Of a stretch of DNA of 44,444 nt, positions 1-44,444 are shown one piece after another. A model generated the notes under the pieces. That model searched no databases. It worked only from the letters and a program-made list of their open reading frames with translations, and was not told the origin of the DNA. Positions within the stretch are counted from its first letter, which is position 1; each line of letters starts with the position of its first letter. The position numbers and the translations under genes were made by a program. Location of the stretch: IMG/VR virus record IMGVR_UViG_2531839661_000010; one strand, given 5' to 3'. Source of the DNA: a virus (Duplodnaviria > Heunggongvirae > Uroviricota > Caudoviricetes).

Positions 1-186
1 ATGGCAGAAAGGTTCGTGAAAACGATGAAGGAAGACTACATCGCGTTCATGCCGAAACCGAATGTAAGAACGGCATTGCATAATCTTGCAGTGGCGATCG
101 AACATTACAATGAAAACCATCCGCACAGTGCGTTGGGTTATCGCTCTCCGCGAGAATATCGACGTCAGCGGGTAACGTTAACTTAA
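1..186 (+). mobile_element. IS3-family (IS2-like) transposase OrfB, C-terminal fragment; gene is cut by the window start
   Basis: ORF ends ...[23 protein letters not shown], the conserved C-terminal tail of IS3-family integrase-core transposases; only the last 61 codons are present. Confidence 0.55.
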
Positions 187-227
187 GATACACCCCCTGT
201 CTGGAAATAAGGGGGCAAGAACAATGA

Positions 228-971
228 TCAGATTCCCTGGTGAGTAAGAATTTTACTTTCTGAACTCCTCTGAGAGTATTGACTTGGAGAAACACCAAAA
301 TAACGTCTAAATACATAAGTAAAGTATGAGATACTGGCATAACCACAGACCTTAGCTACTTTACTAATAGGATAACAACGAGTGCTGAGTAAATATTCAG
401 CCATTTGCATCCTCTCATCAAGTATGATCTTACTGAATGATACCCCCTCTTCTTTCAATTTCCTCTTTAGTAAACTTTCGCTGAGATATAATCTTGATGA
501 TATATCCTTAAGACGCCATGGTGCAGATAAATCCGTATGAATAATCGTTTTAACTTTAGCCCCTGTGCTTTTCAAACATCCAAACAGAAATACTCCAAAT
601 TGTTTTTCAGAAGAAAATGCAGAGAGACATGTAAAAGCAATAGACTCATCAAAAATTTCTATGTATTCAGCACAGTGATTAGCCCAACTAATTAATCCTT
701 TAATTAAACTGAAGTCAGCAAAGTTTATTTTTAAATAAGATGGATATTCCCTATAATCAGAAATATCCCTTAAGTTATTAGCTTTCAAATAGCGACTAAT
801 AAACTCAGCGCCAAAATCTGCCACTATCACTCTTTCAGGATATGTCAGGAAGAAATCTCTAGAGCTAGAGTCGACAAGTACAGATGAACCTCTCTCCAGA
901 AACACACTCTCTTTTCCGAAATAAACATCAAAGGACTCCAAAATCAATATAACTGAACATGTAGTTGCCAT
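228..971 (-). CDS. AraC/XylS-family transcriptional regulator
   Basis: C-terminal helix-turn-helix signature KVAKVCGYASISYFTYVFRRYFGVSPSQY; AT-rich gene; first ATG is at 971 (ORF-track start at 980 is a GTG). Confidence 0.7.
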   Translation of the reverse strand: MATTCSVILILESFDVYFGKESVFLERGSSVLVDSSSRDFFLTYPERVIVADFGAEFISRYLKANNLRDISDYREYPSYLKINFADFSLIKGLISWANHCAEYIEIFDESIAFTCLSAFSSEKQFGVFLFGCLKSTGAKVKTIIHTDLSAPWRLKDISSRLYLSESLLKRKLKEEGVSFSKIILDERMQMAEYLLSTRCYPISKVAKVCGYASISYFTYVFRRYFGVSPSQYSQRSSESKILTHQGI

Positions 972-1358
972 ATCATCCACCCAATTTAACTGAAACTAGG
1001 ATGAAGTATATGCATATAAAGTTCACTTTGCCAAACTTCAGTATAAAAAACCACATAAAAAATAGGGTGTGATAAAAAATACCGTAACAATAAAGCAAAG
1101 AATTATAAATTACGTTACAGTTACAAATGATACTCAAGAAACAATTCCTTAGGAAAAACTTATTTACAGCCAATAAGTAAGACACTTATATGATATCAAG
1201 TTTTCATAAAACATAACTAGGCTAAATAGCTGCGCCTAATACCGCTACACTTTTGCCAGCCCATGTTTGCCTCCGGGTATTGACCCCTTCTCTACGCAAC
1301 TTCAGTTCCCACCACCAACTTTGCGGCAGCTTTGTAGGATCAATGTCTAAAAGAATAA

Positions 1359-1372
1359 TGGTGACCGATAAG
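1359..1372. repeat. Degenerate copy of the thrW 3' core (candidate attR of the prophage)
   Basis: tggtgaccgataag matches the plus-strand 3' end of thrW at 43001-43012 (tggtgccgataa) 12 of 12 with one inserted base, same orientation. Confidence 0.3.
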
Positions 1373-1555
1373 AAAACGACTGAATAACTGCAGATTTTCG
1401 CTCAAAACCTTCCTGTCAGATCCATAGCGAATCAAGTGCTGAATGTCACAGTATCGAACAGAAAACAGTGACGATCTAACCCTTCAAGAATATTCTACGA
1501 TTGTTCTGTTTAGGAAAAGCAAGGCGGGAAGTCGGGAGATAAGTCATTGATAAAG

Positions 1556-1620
1556 TGGCGGAGAGAGGGGGATTTGAACCCCGGTAGAGTTGCCCCTACT
1601 CCGGTTTTCGAGACCGGTCC
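1556..1620 (-). pseudogene. 3' fragment (65 nt) of a tRNA-Ser(CGA) gene, serU-like; the 5' third is absent
   Basis: Reverse complement reads GGACCGGTCTCGAAAACCGGAGTAGGGGCAACTCTACCGGGGTTCAAATCCCCCTCTCTCCGCCA (anticodon stem through CCA end, as recalled for E. coli serU); upstream sequence is unrelated AT-rich DNA. Confidence 0.7.
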
Positions 1621-1700
1621 AATCATCAAACGAAACATAAAATTAATTCACATTATGAGGAAAAGTATCTTTTTTGTACTATGTAAATTCAAAGAGTTAG

Positions 1701-2570
<870 letters not shown>

Positions 2571-2630
2571 GTCTTTAAGTGATAAGCATAAACCGCAGCA
2601 CGATCTTCTTGCATACGACGTGCTACGGTT

Positions 2631-3185
2631 TCATTTATCTCCGACCGGAAACTTCTTATACAGTGTCGATATACCAACATCATAGATGATCGCCACCTTC
2701 TGGCGAGGAACGCCTGATGCAATTAATCGTCCGGCCTGCTCCCATTGTTCTGGTGTAAGTTTGGGGCGACGTCCACCAATTCGTCCTTGTGCGCGAGCTG
2801 CTTCCAGTCCAGCTTTTGTTCGTTCAACAATCAGTTCACGCTCCATTTCAGCCAGGGCACCCATCACATGAAAGAAAAAGCGCCCCATTGGGGTACTGGT
2901 ATCAATTGAATCCGTCAGACTACGAAAGTTGATGCCTCGTTCGCGCAACTCCTCCACCAGCACGACAAGATGCCGCATACTGCGCCCCAGTCGGTCCAGT
3001 TTCCAGACTACCAGCGTGTCACCTGCCGATAATGTCCTGAGCAGCTTTTTCAGTCCTGGTCTGTCGGACTTTGTACCGCTTATCTTGTCTTCAAAAATCA
3101 GCTCGCATCCTGCACAGTTCAGCGCATTACGTTGTAGATCTGTGTTCTGGTCATTTGTTGATACGCGTACATAGCCAATAAGCAT
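2631..3185 (-). CDS. Serine-recombinase DNA invertase (Gin/Pin/Hin/Cin family)
   Basis: MLIGYVRVSTNDQNTDLQRNAL...VVWKLDRLGRSMRHL...GINFRSLTDSIDTSTPMGRFFFHVMGALAEMERELIVERT is near-colinear with Gin/Pin as recalled; start placed at the MLIGYVRVST methionine (ATG 3185). Confidence 0.9.
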   Translation of the reverse strand: MLIGYVRVSTNDQNTDLQRNALNCAGCELIFEDKISGTKSDRPGLKKLLRTLSAGDTLVVWKLDRLGRSMRHLVVLVEELRERGINFRSLTDSIDTSTPMGRFFFHVMGALAEMERELIVERTKAGLEAARAQGRIGGRRPKLTPEQWEQAGRLIASGVPRQKVAIIYDVGISTLYKKFPVGDK

Positions 3186-3211
3186 GGTAGATCCCCCTGA
3201 CAAAAGCAGGA

Positions 3212-3586
3212 ATGATGCCATTTGCTCGTTATTTCTGCATTTTCATAAACGTTGGTTTGGGAGAAGCGGCGAAAAGGAATGTGGGGACTGGGGCGAATCA
3301 GATACCAGACATGTCAGCTTATTCATCAGGATCTGGCTGGCAAAAATTGCCTGATGGTTCAATTGAACAGTGGGGAAGAATTAATTTCCCGACTAACGCC
3401 GCGGCGGTATCTACAAATGTGACTTTCCCCATTCCTTTTACGCAGGAGCCAGACGTAGTGATTGTATATGACGGCGGTTTTGGTGGTGGGAATATGTGGG
3501 GCGCAACTAACTGGACGCGAACAGGATTTGTTGCGCATTGTAACTATGGATTTGAAGGTGGAGCTTTCTTTGCGAAAGGGCGTTAA
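3212..3586 (+). CDS. Alternative tail-fibre C-terminal variable segment, silent in this orientation
   Basis: Reading frame runs through the left crossover site in the same frame as the tail-fibre gene at the right site (VGLGEA vs LGLGEG); Gly-rich fibre-tip-like sequence; followed directly by a tail-fibre assembly gene. Confidence 0.55.
3240..3265. repeat. Invertase crossover site (gix/hix-like), left copy
   Basis: TTTTCATAAACGTTGGTTTGGGAGAA; 20 of 26 positions match the reverse complement of 5090-5115, including a 14-nt perfect block TTGGTTTGGGAGAA; lies just upstream of the invertase start. Confidence 0.6.
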
Positions 3587-3588
3587 TT

Positions 3589-4029
3589 ATGAAATATTTA
3601 TATATTGATAATCTGGCGTACCCTTACGCCCTACAGTCTGTTTACGCTGCAAAAGGGCAATGGCCAGAAGGAAAAGGCGTAGACATAGACGAAGCTATTT
3701 TCAGGGAATATTTCCATGACACGCCGCCCGAAGGTAAGCGCAGAATTACCGCAGGCGACGGAATGCCAGCTTGGGCAGATGTTCCTCCACCAACACGTGA
3801 AGAACAAATTGCATCAGCCGAAACTAAAAAGCAGCAATTGATTAACCAGGCCAACGAATACATCAACAGTAAACAATGGCCAGGTAAAGCATCAATTGGT
3901 CGTCTGAAAGGTGAGGAACTGGTGCAATATAATTTGTGGCTGGATTATCTGGACGCACTGGAACTGGTCGATACTTCCGGTGCGCCAGATATTGAATGGC
4001 CTACGCCTCCGGCAGTTCAGGCCAGATGA
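3589..4029 (+). CDS. Tail-fibre assembly protein, alternative copy
   Basis: C-terminus LDALELVDTSGAPDIEWPTPPA parallels the C-terminus of the convergent assembly gene (DAVTATDTSTAPDVIWPELPEA); follows the alternative fibre segment. Confidence 0.7.
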   Translation: MKYLYIDNLAYPYALQSVYAAKGQWPEGKGVDIDEAIFREYFHDTPPEGKRRITAGDGMPAWADVPPPTREEQIASAETKKQQLINQANEYINSKQWPGKASIGRLKGEELVQYNLWLDYLDALELVDTSGAPDIEWPTPPAVQAR

Positions 4030-4603
4030 CGTCCGGCGCTGTGCTGGTATCTGTTGCCGTCACCGCGTCAATGTAATCCAGCACAGCGTTAAGTCGGGTG
4101 TTTTCTGGCTGCGTCAGCTTCCGCCCAGCCTGTAATTTCAGTTGAATCAGACTGATGGAAGCCATTGCAGCATCAATCAGCGACTGGCGCTGTGCTTCTG
4201 CCGCTTCTACTGCGGCGCTATGCTGTGCCTCGGTATCCGTCACCCATTTCTCACCATCCCATTTATCGTATGGCGTTAACGGGGCGATAGTGGTTGTATT
4301 TTCAGGGTAATCACCCGGAACTGTGATTTCTTTGGTATCTCCCGTTTCGGTACTATAGACAACTTCACCGCGATGGTCTGGCACATATTCCCATGAATTT
4401 AAATCTACAGAGCGACAGATTGCATAACCAGCTTTATGTGTACCTGGTGCATCCAGACAGGAACATGCCGGGATACCGACTCCGACAGCGAGATATTCAG
4501 TTGATGTAGAAATATATTCCCGCGTTTCGCCATCATAGTTATGTACGATGATTTCCCCATCATTTAAAGCGTAACCGTCTTTTCCCAAAATAGCCTGTTC
4601 CAT
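4001..4603 (-). CDS. Tail-fibre assembly protein
   Basis: Immediately downstream of the tail-fibre gene (stop/start adjacent); conserved C-terminal motif shared with the alternative copy; 3' ends of the two genes overlap by 29 bp. Confidence 0.75.
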   Translation of the reverse strand: MEQAILGKDGYALNDGEIIVHNYDGETREYISTSTEYLAVGVGIPACSCLDAPGTHKAGYAICRSVDLNSWEYVPDHRGEVVYSTETGDTKEITVPGDYPENTTTIAPLTPYDKWDGEKWVTDTEAQHSAAVEAAEAQRQSLIDAAMASISLIQLKLQAGRKLTQPENTRLNAVLDYIDAVTATDTSTAPDVIWPELPEA

Positions 4604-5440
4604 TTATGCAGCCCTCACAATGTAGTTAAATGCAATGTTTCGCGGGCTACCATCACCGGCGCCGGAACTGACATGATTTGTTCTATCCATTCGTTTACTG
4701 TCATTTGTTGTTCCACTCCCATCCTTCCACGAATACAATAACCCGCCATCGCCAATGCTCAACTGCACCGCAAATACGGATGATGTACCTAATTCACCAA
4801 CATCTCTAGCCATGAGTGGGTTCCCTGTCCATCCATGCATTTCATGGTTATGTTCAAGGATAGATGCTGCCTGACTTGAAAGCAGCAGTCTCGCGGAATC
4901 AACACCTCGCCCATCATCCCACCCGCGAATAAACTCACCGCGCAAATCCGGTAATTTTAACTTTGGGTAAGCCTTTGCCAGTTTTGGGTACTCTTCGGCA
5001 GAAAAAGGTGCACCGTTGCATTTCAGCCAGCCTGTTGGTGGTGTGGCTGAAGGCCACGGAACAGGCACACCAACGGGTAACGCTGAGCCTTCTCCCAAAC
5101 CAAGGTTTTCGAGAGCCGTTGGTACCGTGCCGTCCGATTTGATATCACCAAACGGATTCTTGCGGCTCAGGTATTCAACAGCAAACCCCGATCTCAGCAA
5201 TTCAACAAAACCGGGCAGATCACCATTATCAAGCACATCCCGTTGCGTTTTGTCACTTACAAACTGGGCCAGAGCTGCAGCAATAAAGCTGGCCTGCCGA
5301 ATAACCTTATTGACTTGCGCACTGGATGCTTTCCCTGCTGTAAATCCGGATAAAAGCGCAGGCAACGCTTCCCATTCCTCCTGCGACATAACATTGGCAT
5401 TCCGATCAGTTGCAAACGCTTTAAAGTCATTTTTCGCCAT
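4604..5440 (-). CDS. Tail-fibre protein (constant N-terminal part plus currently joined variable C-terminal part)
   Basis: Start ATG at 5440 overlaps the upstream gene stop (ATGA); C-terminal part carries a tail-collar-like sequence; crossover site lies inside the gene at 5090-5115. Confidence 0.75.
5090..5115. repeat. Invertase crossover site (gix/hix-like), right copy, inside the tail-fibre gene
   Basis: TTCTCCCAAACCAAGGTTTTCGAGAG; imperfect 12-2-12 dyad around a central AA, resembling hix/gix sites as recalled. Confidence 0.6.
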
Positions 5441-6120
5441 CAGAGTAATACTCCCCATGCCCCTACATCAAAACCACTGATGAATTCGTTATCCATATCA
5501 AAACCAAAAAATTTTGAACCTTCCGATGGAGTTTCCACCGAAGGTGTTTCAATGCCACCCGCCCAAACCCCGGCGGCTTTTACTGTGAGATATCCCTGTT
5601 TAATTGCAGCAATTAACTCACGCGATACATCTGAAATATCAGTATCAGGAAAGAGCCAGACCGATATCGTCATGTCCTGGTTATCGACTATCTGCATTCG
5701 CAGTCCGGATCCTGCTGTCGCCGCGTCAAGAATTGCTGGAAGCGAATCATTCCGTCCGTCCCAGTTATTAATCGCAATCTTCGCTTTAAGGATGACACGA
5801 TAAGTTTCATCGCTGAGGTACATGTATCCGGAATCAGGATCGTATGGCCCCTGCCATACACCCTGATCATATCCAAGCCCGTCGGTATCCCAGCTGAAAT
5901 AGACACCTGAGATAGGCTGGCTGACAACACGGCTACGTCCGATCCACAATCCAAGAATGTCAAGTTGCACACCAACCGCAGAGTCAATATCAAATGCAGT
6001 AATCAGCCCTCTGGTGGCAGCCGCAACATCAATAAGCGGCCGGGTCATCAGATCAACATGTGCAAGAAATTTAGGTTTGGTGGCGTGGTAGTTCGTGATC
6101 AGTTCGGTGTATTTGCTCAT
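5440..6120 (-). CDS. Tail/baseplate protein (Mu gp48 / e14 YmfQ position)
   Basis: Position between baseplate J-like gene and tail-fibre gene; start/stop overlaps with both neighbours; family assignment is positional, not verified. Confidence 0.45.
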
Positions 6121-41624: not shown

Positions 41625-41946
41625 GGCCTGTCAGTTTCTCAAGATATCCAGACCTACCGCCACCAACTGGATACGAACAGGCCGCCTACAGGCAACACGC
41701 AAAGACCCCACTAAACCAAAATCTCCTTACCTCACAACGCGACAAGCCTGCATTGCGGCGCTTCAGTCTCCGCTGCATACTATCAAGGTGAGCGCGGGTG
41801 ATGGCATAACAGAGGAAAGAAAATGTCACTCTTCCGCAGAAGTGAAATATGGTACGCCAGTTTCACATTGCCGAACGGTAAAAGATTTAAACAGTCTCTT
41901 GGAACAAAGGACAAAAGGCAGGCGACAGAGCTCCATGACAAGCTAA
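41596..41946 (+). CDS. xis: Excisionase (AlpA-like HTH)
   Basis: [26 protein letters not shown] helix-turn-helix; AGAGG before ATG 41596; 3' end overlaps the integrase start by about 124 bp, so the true stop is uncertain. Confidence 0.5.
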
Positions 41947-42986
41947 AGGCTGAAGCATGGCGGGTCAGCAAACTTGGTGAAATACCTGATATGACGTTTG
42001 AGGAAGCGTGTGTCAGGTGGCTCGAAGAGAAAGCACATAAGAAATCACTGGACGATGACAAAAGCCGGATCGGATTCTGGCTTCAACATTTCGCAGGGAT
42101 GCAACTAAGAGACATCACTGAATCAAAAATTTATTCAGCGATGCAGAAAATGACAAACCGGCGTCATGAGGAAAACTGGAAACTCAGGGCAGAAGCATGC
42201 AGAAAAAAAGGGAAACCTGTTCCAGAATACACGCCAAAACCAGCGTCCGTTGCAACGAAGGCTACGCATCTTTCATTTATAAAGGCCCTGCTAAGAGCCG
42301 CAGAGCGTGAATGGAAAATGCTGGATAAGGCACCAATTATTAAAGTGCCTCAACCAAAGAATAAACGGATCCGCTGGCTGGAGCCCCATGAAGCACAAAG
42401 GCTGATTGATGAATGTCCGGAGCCATTAAAGTCTGTTGTTGAATTTGCACTGGCAACAGGCTTAAGACGCTCGAACATCATCAACCTTGAATGGCAACAA
42501 ATAGATATGCAGCGCCGGGTGGCATGGATAAACCCGGAAGAGAGTAAATCAAACCGCGCAATTGGCGTTGCGCTGAATGATACTGCATGTCGCGTATTGA
42601 AAAAACAAATCGGGAATCATCACCGTTGGGTATTTGTGTACAAGGAAAGCTGTACCAAACCAGACGGAACGAAAGCGCCAACAGTAAGGAAGATGCGGTA
42701 TGACGCAAACACAGCCTGGAAAGCGGCGCTGAGACGGGCTGGTATTGATGATTTCAGATTTCACGACTTGAGACACACCTGGGCAAGTTGGCTGGTTCAA
42801 GCCGGAGTCCCGTTGTCAGTGTTACAGGAAATGGGAGGTTGGGAGTCTATCGAAATGGTTCGTCGATATGCTCACCTTGCACCTAATCACCTTACCGAAC
42901 ACGCACGGCAAATAGACTCGATCCTGAACCCATCGGTCCCAAATTTGTCCCAGTCAAAAAATAAGGAAGGTACTAATGATGTGTAA
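41823..42986 (+). CDS. int: Tyrosine integrase (DLP12 IntD-like)
   Basis: [35 protein letters not shown]-terminus and C-terminal catalytic motifs ([15 protein letters not shown]...RRYAHL); ends 14 bp before the tRNA 3' end. Confidence 0.9.
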
Positions 42987-43000
42987 CTTATTGATTTAAA

Positions 43001-43076
43001 TGGTGCCGATAATAGGAGTCGAACCTACGACCTTCGCATTACGAATGCGCTGCTCTACCAACTGAGCTATATCGGC
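43001..43076 (-). tRNA. thrW: tRNA-Thr (anticodon CGT)
   Basis: Reverse complement GCCGATATAGCTCAGTTGGTAGAGCAGCGCATTCGTAATGCGAAGGTCGTAGGTTCGACTCCTATTATCGGCACCA folds as a 76-nt cloverleaf with CGT anticodon and CCA end. Confidence 0.9.
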
Positions 43077-43190: not shown

Positions 43191-44444
43191 TTACGCACGA
43201 ATGGTGTAATCACCAATGCCGATCCACTTGTAAGTGGTCAGTGCTTCCAGCCCCATTGGGCCACGCGCGTGGAGTTTTTGTGTGCTTACCGCCACTTCCG
43301 CACCCAGACCAAACTGGCCGCCGTCGGTAAAACGCGTAGAGGCGTTAACGTAAACAGCGGACGAATCCACTTCGTTAACAAAACGCTGGGCGTTGCGCAT
43401 ATCGCGGGTCAGGATCGCATCGGAGTGTTGTGTGCCGTGTTCACGAATATGGGCGATGGCATCGTCAAGATCGCTGACGATTTTGACGTTCAAATCTAAT
43501 GACAGAAACTCATCGTCATACTCTTCGGCTTTAACAGCAACCACCTTCGCAGGGCCTGCCTGCAACTGCGCCAGTGCAGCTGCATCTGCGTGTAATGTCA
43601 CGCCGCTTTCCGCCATTTGTTTGCTTAATGCGGGCAGGAAGCTATCGGCGATGTTTTTATTCACCAGCAACGTTTCAACCGTATTACATGTGCTCGGACG
43701 CTGAGTTTTCGCGTTGACGATCACTTTTAATGCTTCAGCGATCTCTACACTTTCATCAACGTAAATATGGCATACGCCTATACCACCTGTGATCACCGGG
43801 ATTGTCGACTGTTCACGGCACAGTTTATGCAAACCAGCGCCACCACGCGGGATCAGCATGTCGATGTATTTATCCATACGCAGCATTTCACTGACCAGCG
43901 CACGGTCAGGATTATCAATCGCCTGCACGGCACCCGCCGGTAAGCCGCAGGATTTCAGGGCGTCCTGAATCACCGCCACCGTTGCAGCGTTAGTGCGACA
44001 CGTTTCTTTGCCACCGCGCAGGATCACCGCATTACCGGTTTTCAGGCACAGCGAAGCGACATCAACCGTCACGTTCGGGCGCGCTTCATAAATCACGCCA
44101 ATAACCCCCAGCGGTACGCGACGACGCTCAAGACGCAGGCCGCTGTCCAGTACGCTGCCATCGATTACCTGCCCCACCGGATCGGCGAGGTTACACACCT
44201 GGCGCACATCATCGGCAATGCCTTTCAGCCGTGCGGGCGTCAGTGCCAGACGGTCAAGCATCGCTTCGCCAAGGCCATTGGCACGCGCGTCAGCAACATC
44301 CTGGGCGTTAGCGTTGAGGATGATTTCGCTTTGTGCTTCCAGTTCATCGGCGATTTTTTCCAGCACGCGATTTTTTTCGCGGCTGGAGAGTTGCGCTAAT
44401 TTATACGAGGCTTGCTTCGCGGCAATGCCCATTTGTTCCAGCAT
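43191..44444 (-). CDS. proA: Gamma-glutamyl phosphate reductase
   Basis: 417-aa protein [50 protein letters not shown]... matches E. coli ProA as recalled; start codon is at the window edge. Confidence 0.95.

Follow-up and report, generated by a model that had tools for sequence, protein, structure and literature searches.

The window analysed here is a single stretch of 44,444 nt of viral DNA (Caudoviricetes; IMG/VR record IMGVR_UViG_2531839661_000010). Its features are summarized in Table 1. From the integrase gene near the right end down to about position 2631, the window consists of prophage DNA. The structural genes of this prophage are 97% identical to those of the induced E. coli myoviruses vB_EcoM-606R2/611R5, which match only the invertase gene in the region beside the serU fragment described below, and the prophage looks full length. 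The invertase gene adjoins oppositely oriented ORFs for tail-fibre assembly (3212-3586 and 3589-4029 on the plus strand, 4001-4603 on the minus strand), and the layout at 2631-4603 is typical of an invertible host-range segment.

Table 1. Positions of the features at the two ends of the window, with the evidence for each
Feature	Position	Strand	Evidence or remark
ISEc48-like IS3-family 3' fragment	1-223	+	97% identity to ISEc48 copies
Transposase ORF remnant, end of catalytic rve_3 domain	1-187	+	Pfam rve_3, E=2.9e-13; meets window edge
AraC-family regulator gene	228-971	-	Pfam HTH_AraC/HTH_18
AT-rich region (27% GC) upstream of the AraC gene	981-1221		Candidate sigma-70-like site at 1034-1005 (-), consensus match only
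IS630-family element, first 56 bp	1222-1277		98% identity to IS630-family copies; internal break at 1277/1278
278 bp of bacterial chromosome downstream of serU (yodB-serU intergenic, B' arm)	1278-1555	-	97% identity to K-12
serU', 3' 65 nt of tRNA-Ser(CGA), serU att core	1556-1620	-	nt 25-90 of K-12 serU, 1-nt deletion
P arm of serU-integrating prophages	1621-2630	+	Contiguous with serU' and yodB in RMDEC332 and MB15
LEM-3-like GIY-YIG gene in the P arm	1797-2570 (ATG)	+	Pfam PF22945
Pin-type serine invertase, tail-fibre end of prophage	2631-3221	-	Pfam Resolvase + HTH_7; annotated pinE in relatives
Tyrosine integrase, 387 aa, thrW-specific, SfI/SfII/SfV (P22-like) type	41823-42986	+	Pfam Phage_integrase, E=5e-48
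attR core of resident prophage	43000-43046		thrW 3' 46 nt plus one base; SfI-annotated 46-bp attP core maps to 43001-43046
thrW, intact, tRNA-Thr(CGU)	43001-43076	-	ARAGORN; Rfam, 71.8 bits
proA, chromosomal flank of thrW	43191-44444	-	417-aa ORF; annotated proA at the same position in O157:H7 SS52

The thrW gene is the only tRNA gene detected in the window by ARAGORN and Rfam. The preliminary description of this DNA had an integrase abutting an intact thrW gene at the right end, and this arrangement is confirmed by ARAGORN, Rfam and Pfam, with 14 bp between the end of the integrase gene and the 3' end of thrW. The integrase region is 98-99% identical at the nucleotide level to the int-attP regions of SfII, SfIV, SfI and SfV, the core included. 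A tyrosine integrase homologous to those of characterised thrW phages lies beside a core identical to the 3' end of thrW, and because this Int-attP module is of the SfI/SfII/SfV type, the prophage sits in thrW. The likeness to SfI, SfII, SfIV and SfV takes in the integrase, the 46-bp core and a stretch of about 125 bp of the arm next to it (98-99% identity). In the Sf phages, attP is followed by the gtrABC serotype-conversion genes, whereas in the window an IS-AraC-serU' block takes that place.

The left boundary of the prophage was previously placed at 1359-1620. To the left of the window, a different boundary is found in four related loci (AR_452, LR-33, TW10722 and O157:H7 SS52), which either are 98-99% identical to window 1-3300 or have the same arrangement. 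All four loci contain a perfect 47-bp repeat of the 3' end of thrW, ATGGTGCCGATAATAGGAGTCGAACCTACGACCTTCGCATTACGAAT. This repeat lies 262 bp to the left of the equivalent of window position 1 in AR_452 and LR-33 and 527 bp to the left of it in TW10722 and O157, which have a longer IS fragment. On its right, one phage arm is common to all four loci. On its left, the neighbours differ: a P4-like element is found in O157, an 18-kb integrase-bearing element in AR_452, and chromosomal LysR'/paoD sequence directly adjoins the repeat in TW10722, as it does in Ceylon31. The flanks are collinear with the thrW region: proA-thrW borders one end and paoD/LysR' the opposite one. A 47-bp repeat with a common arm and differing left neighbours is a classical attL, and the chromosome on each side is that normally found around thrW.

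The thrW 3'-end repeat is absent from window 1-42900, as judged from a 25-mer search allowing up to 3 mismatches and from blastn-short, so that no direct repeat of the thrW 3' end is present at the far prophage end within the window. Because the source genome left of position 1 is outside the window, the position of attL is taken from the relatives, and the attL copy of the window prophage is estimated to lie 262-309 bp to the left of position 1. The proposed boundary at 1359-1620 is therefore abandoned. An attL beyond the left edge of the window puts the serU piece about 1.9 kb from the end of the prophage; this piece is thus internal, as are the AraC gene and the IS remnants, and all of them lie between the tail-fibre genes and attP. 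The loci of O157:H7 SS52 and AR_452 have tandem arrays at thrW, to the left of thrW'. In each, the left-hand element opens with an integrase of its own, immediately next to the thrW' repeat. The P4-like satellite of O157 carries an 'ABC-three component system' and has a further 27-bp partial thrW repeat at its far end, and the 18-kb element of AR_452 carries genes for a TOPRIM/DUF927 primase and for injection proteins.

The sequence at 1359-1372 had been regarded as a thrW-like core copy with one inserted base, namely as an att fossil. The terminal 12-mer of the thrW core, with one edit allowed, has two matches in the window, at 519-530 and 1359-1371, and for any 12-mer of the 47-bp core, 10 one-edit matches are observed, as compared with 10.9 expected from shuffled sequences. 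The 14-mer lies inside the homology to the serU-yodB intergenic region of K-12, which reads TGGTGAGCGATAAG at this site. Outside 43001-43076, no stretch of the window resembles the 3' end of thrW beyond chance. Because the window has no other thrW repeat, the 14-mer is rejected as an att fossil and is a chance-level match in ordinary serU-downstream sequence. The finding named in the preliminary description as fatal to its own reading, a chance match together with a boundary elsewhere, is what is observed: the match frequency equals the shuffle level, and the relatives place the boundary at another site.

The second proposed fossil, a 65-nt serU-like 3' fragment, is real. It extends from the anticodon stem (anticodon CGA, nt 25) to the 3' CCA, and the 5' 24 nt of serU are missing. 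Its match to the serU core covers 65 of 66 positions; the fragment is 65 nt long because one C is deleted from a run in the T stem (CCCCC to CCCC). Among the 12 loci compared, this deletion (window 1575-1582) is shared only by AR_452, which is also 100% identical to the window over 1621-2630. On account of the deletion and the fully identical arm, AR_452 is probably nearer to the source than any other sequenced strain.

The fragment is called a tRNA gene by neither ARAGORN nor Rfam and does not have a complete cloverleaf by tRNA models. A scan for terminators and promoters finds no terminator-like site at the 3' end of serU', and a role in stopping transcription is therefore unsupported. A second serU core is found neither in the window nor between the block and thrW' in the relatives. 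The homologies to intact serU, to the arm of phage ev099 and to the GIY-YIG arm all break within 1612-1620. The serU piece is neither a functional tRNA nor an end of this prophage and has no evident function in it.

The DNA on the AraC side of this fragment is of bacterial origin. Window 1278-1620 is 97.1% identical to K-12 2043190-2043533 over 343 aligned bases, and the 3' part of serU with its downstream flank has a match in 5405 of 5426 complete E. coli genomes. In strains whose serU site is unoccupied, K-12 for example, the 278-bp sequence comes directly after serU; in true serU lysogens, it is found on the chromosome side of attR. When a synthetic attR query, in which the K-12 yodB-intergenic-serU' sequence is joined to the GIY-YIG arm of the window, is searched, it is covered over 100% of its length at 99% identity in RMDEC332 and MB15, whose prophages adjoin zinT/yodB. 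It is also covered in two further genomes with an interruption by IS4. PM4 has the same arm-serU' junction in a lambda-tailed prophage on a chromosome without yodB. In RMDEC332, a 39-kb prophage lies between intact serU and the attR junction, and this attR is 97.3% identical to window 1278-2633. Comparison of the RMDEC332 prophage ends reveals no shared sequence other than the core of about 66 nt and a weak similarity of 17 nt. Therefore, the 278-bp sequence is the B' arm and not a phage arm. An ancient phage origin of this chromosomal stretch is conceivable in principle.

An exact 20-mer of the 278-bp flank, searched for in 185,579 species genomes, is found only in E. coli, in Shigella and in two MAG contigs. 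One of these contigs, from a 'Bacillota bacterium' (JAEWTL010000060.1, 1-3026), is 99.3% identical to the K-12 zinT-yodB-serU-mtfA region and almost certainly represents E. coli contamination in the bin. The other, from a 'Mycobacterium sp.', has the exact 20-mer and no extended match. A displaced remnant of the same serU junction is found in E. coli WP5-W18-ESBL-11 (locus 4979-6011), in which a lambda-tailed ssrA prophage carries the GIY-YIG arm. Of the serU core, this prophage retains no more than the 22 innermost nt (window 1599-1620), beside a restriction-modification pair.

These results indicate that the junction at 1278-2630 has the anatomy of a serU attR: a 3'-serU core extending to CCA, a genuine serU phage arm, and a bacterial flank that continues from the core. 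Its core boundary, GIY-YIG P arm and host flank are the same as those of known serU attR junctions (SerU-LTIIb prophage KU052038; RMDEC332, MB15 and PM4), with identities of 97-99%. It differs from them in that it lies not at mtfA-serU...yodB but inside a prophage at proA-thrW, and in that its host flank stops at 278 bp instead of running on to yodB. Because the locus is the wrong one and the flank ends after 278 bp in an IS630-family fragment, the junction is a displaced fossil copy and not an active one.

At 1277/1278, the host flank is fused to the truncated IS630-family end. This fragment has its terminal inverted repeat at 1222, AAATAGCTGCGC, and, when aligned to a full copy, diverges after ...CCTCCGGG. 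The junction on the AraC side is identical to the base in every carrier examined, including phages ev099 and mEp332, which points to a single origin. The AraC gene is bracketed by two IS remnants, and the ISEc48-like one is annotated in relatives as 'integrase core domain-containing protein, missing N-terminus'. The AraC protein is identical at 246 of 248 residues to the one encoded at the equivalent place in O157:H7 SS52, and, judged by this similarity, its gene is probably the orthologue of PatE (Z0321, OI-8) of O157:H7. PatE is an AraC-like regulator of OI-8 that activates acid-resistance genes (PMC10877973).

The block at 1-1277 is present in 645 of the 5426 complete E. coli genomes, O157:H7 included; there and in the lambda-Int phages named below, the identity is 99% over 1.6-1.9 kb. 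It is joined to the GIY-YIG arm as in the window in 407 genomes and to an ev099-type arm in 97. The first 116 bp of the ev099 arm are the P arm of a genuine serU prophage, SerU-LTIIb, and O157 and TW10722 have a third, slightly different arm-core boundary. Phages ev099, mEp332 and PhiR70_1 match window 1-1616 at 99% identity and carry lambda Int with the lambda attP sequence, and in APEC O78 the corresponding prophage adjoins bioA-ybhB, which is the lambda site. A single AraC/host-flank junction thus occurs with three or more authentic serU P arms and with two or more integration modules. The exchange of modules is also evident from phage phi458 (OP434518.1, 1-1247), a lambda-like siphovirus that carries the same SfV-type integrase as the window at 99.3% identity, lacks the block and has an unrelated b region. 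The thrW Int-attP module therefore passes between phages whose backbones are very different.

The preliminary description proposed a search for the serU fragment in related phage genomes, and the fragment is present in ev099, mEp332 and PhiR70_1. Host DNA beside an att junction is therefore found in free, plaque-forming phage genomes. The record of ev099 is a complete phage genome, that of mEp332 gives K-12 MG1655 as the host, and mEp332 has been used as a K-12 lambdoid phage (PMC3442831); both phages appear to be free and viable. The IS630/AraC block is beside intact serU in none of the 5426 genomes, as judged from a synthetic AraC-278 bp-intact serU-mtfA query at a coverage of at least 80%.

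Window 1278-2630 is very probably a fossil serU attR junction that was captured in a transduction-like manner, was reassorted among phages, and is now cargo in a prophage at thrW. Because no intermediate is present among the 5426 genomes, we infer the capture pathway, and with it the mechanism of capture and the order of events, from the observed anatomy, homologies, junction positions and block distribution. A lambdoid prophage would once have resided in serU, and its junction would have consisted of the P arm with the GIY-YIG gene, the serU core and the 278-bp host flank. The serU prophage may have lost its normal excision path and been excised aberrantly, as in the lambda-gal/bio type of event. 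Alternatively, an incoming phage may have undergone illegitimate recombination with a serU lysogen. By either route, the attR junction with its host flank would have entered a phage genome, and the far joint would have fallen in an IS630-family element beside the AraC gene. From then on, the block would have been carried as cargo in the 'b region', the non-essential stretch that separates the tail-fibre genes from attP. Recombination among lambdoid phages would have put it beside a lambda or an SfV-type Int-attP, and the arm to the right of the core may have been swapped with those of resident serU prophages, either via the common 340 bp or at the core.

In the preliminary description, it was proposed that the phage lineage once integrated at serU and later acquired a thrW-specific integrase module, while the old attP arm was kept. 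An earlier residence at serU is indeed recorded in the window, and the thrW Int-attP module is exchangeable; the piece that was kept is of the attR type and is not an old attP arm. Retention of an intact old attP (P arm, core and P' arm) after the swap of the integrase module is improbable. The GIY-YIG arm and core are the genuine P arm and core of serU phages, and integrase modules are clearly exchangeable, as this explanation requires. However, the other side of the core is host serU-downstream sequence for 278 bp, and the genuine serU prophage arm that follows intact serU is unrelated to it beyond about 17 nt. Instead of a serU-type integrase or a remnant of one, a truncated IS630-family end follows. 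Over the remainder of its length, the RMDEC332 serU prophage shows no DNA-level similarity to the window prophage, which is therefore not simply the RMDEC332 phage with a new integrase.

Recombination or inversion between prophages at thrW and serU, by which the left end would be the serU locus itself, was also proposed and is contradicted by the structure of the locus. The orientation and position of serU' do mimic those of a tRNA 3' end displaced to the far end of a prophage. However, a perfect thrW' attL lies beyond the block in the four relatives, this attL is followed either by the usual chromosomal neighbours of thrW (paoD, LysR', ykgR) or by a tandem thrW element, and the flanks are collinear. 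The serU flank is only 278 bp long and ends in an IS fragment, and the same block is packaged in free phages. Such a chromosomal hybrid is very unlikely.

It is equally hard to credit that a serU-specific element, either the AraC/IS block or the element to its left, entered an internal serU core as a secondary site. The homology among carriers does break exactly within the core, at 1612-1620, as is expected for a site-specific exchange. Against this stand the lack of a second serU core, both in the window and between the block and thrW' in the relatives, the lack of a serU-type integrase in the block, and the finding that the left-hand elements start with their own integrases directly after thrW'. 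Finally, chance resemblance or ordinary chromosome of the thrW locus can practically be dismissed, since chance accounts for the 14-mer at 1359-1372 only, while 343 aligned bases are 97% identical to the serU region and the block is present only inside prophages and absent from the thrW region of K-12-like genomes, so that the tRNA-Ser fragment is not an ordinary part of a prophage-free thrW locus.

If the junction is a captured fossil, serU' with its flank may not be inert, although this is rather unlikely. It might serve as a portable homology patch, or its core might still be a substrate for integrases of the serU type. Arm exchange is conceivable because one AraC junction is joined to three different genuine serU P arms, and continued recognition of the core by integrases is conceivable because the homology breaks fall within it. 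As a homology patch, it would provide about 340 bp that are the same as the chromosome and the attR of any resident serU prophage. Carriers would then swap their tail-fibre-proximal arm with resident serU prophages, and RecA-dependent integration at serU would be a second use.

The structure is comparable to that of the lambda gal and lambda bio transducing phages, in which host DNA contiguous with the prophage-chromosome junction is likewise present in the phage genome. It differs from theirs in that the host DNA is limited to 278 bp of non-coding sequence and the far joint lies in an IS630-family element. It also differs in that the block is fixed, has spread to hundreds of genomes, and is linked to integrases for other sites, so that the carrier no longer uses the site that is recorded in its DNA. 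The thrW prophage of O157:H7 that contains OI-8 and patE has the same order as the window prophage, proA-thrW-int...pin-GIY-YIG-serU'-AraC-IS fragment-thrW', with a tandem element beyond thrW'. In O157, this prophage has decayed to a remnant whose integrase is disrupted by an IS, and its arm-core boundary reads ACCCG, as against GTCCA in the window. We take this O157:H7 prophage to be of the Sp1/CP-933H type. In a literature search, no paper naming both CP-933H and thrW was found.

As a relic of phage mosaicism, the junction is ordinary: it belongs to a known kind of att-site fossil and reveals no new mechanism. What is unusual about it is that the host flank is preserved and that the block is widely spread, with laboratory lambdoid phages and O157:H7 among its carriers. 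The analysis corrects a mis-drawn prophage boundary and shows that the presence of a tRNA fragment within a prophage does not have to signal an end of that prophage. It also provides a clear natural example of transduction-like capture, in which the captured DNA has become fixed and has spread over lambdoid phages whose integration sites number at least two, thrW and the lambda site. The block travels with a regulator of acid resistance and virulence, probably PatE, in O157:H7 among others. The finding is therefore relevant to the prediction of prophage boundaries, to the tracing of integrase-module exchange, and to the mobilisation of patE.
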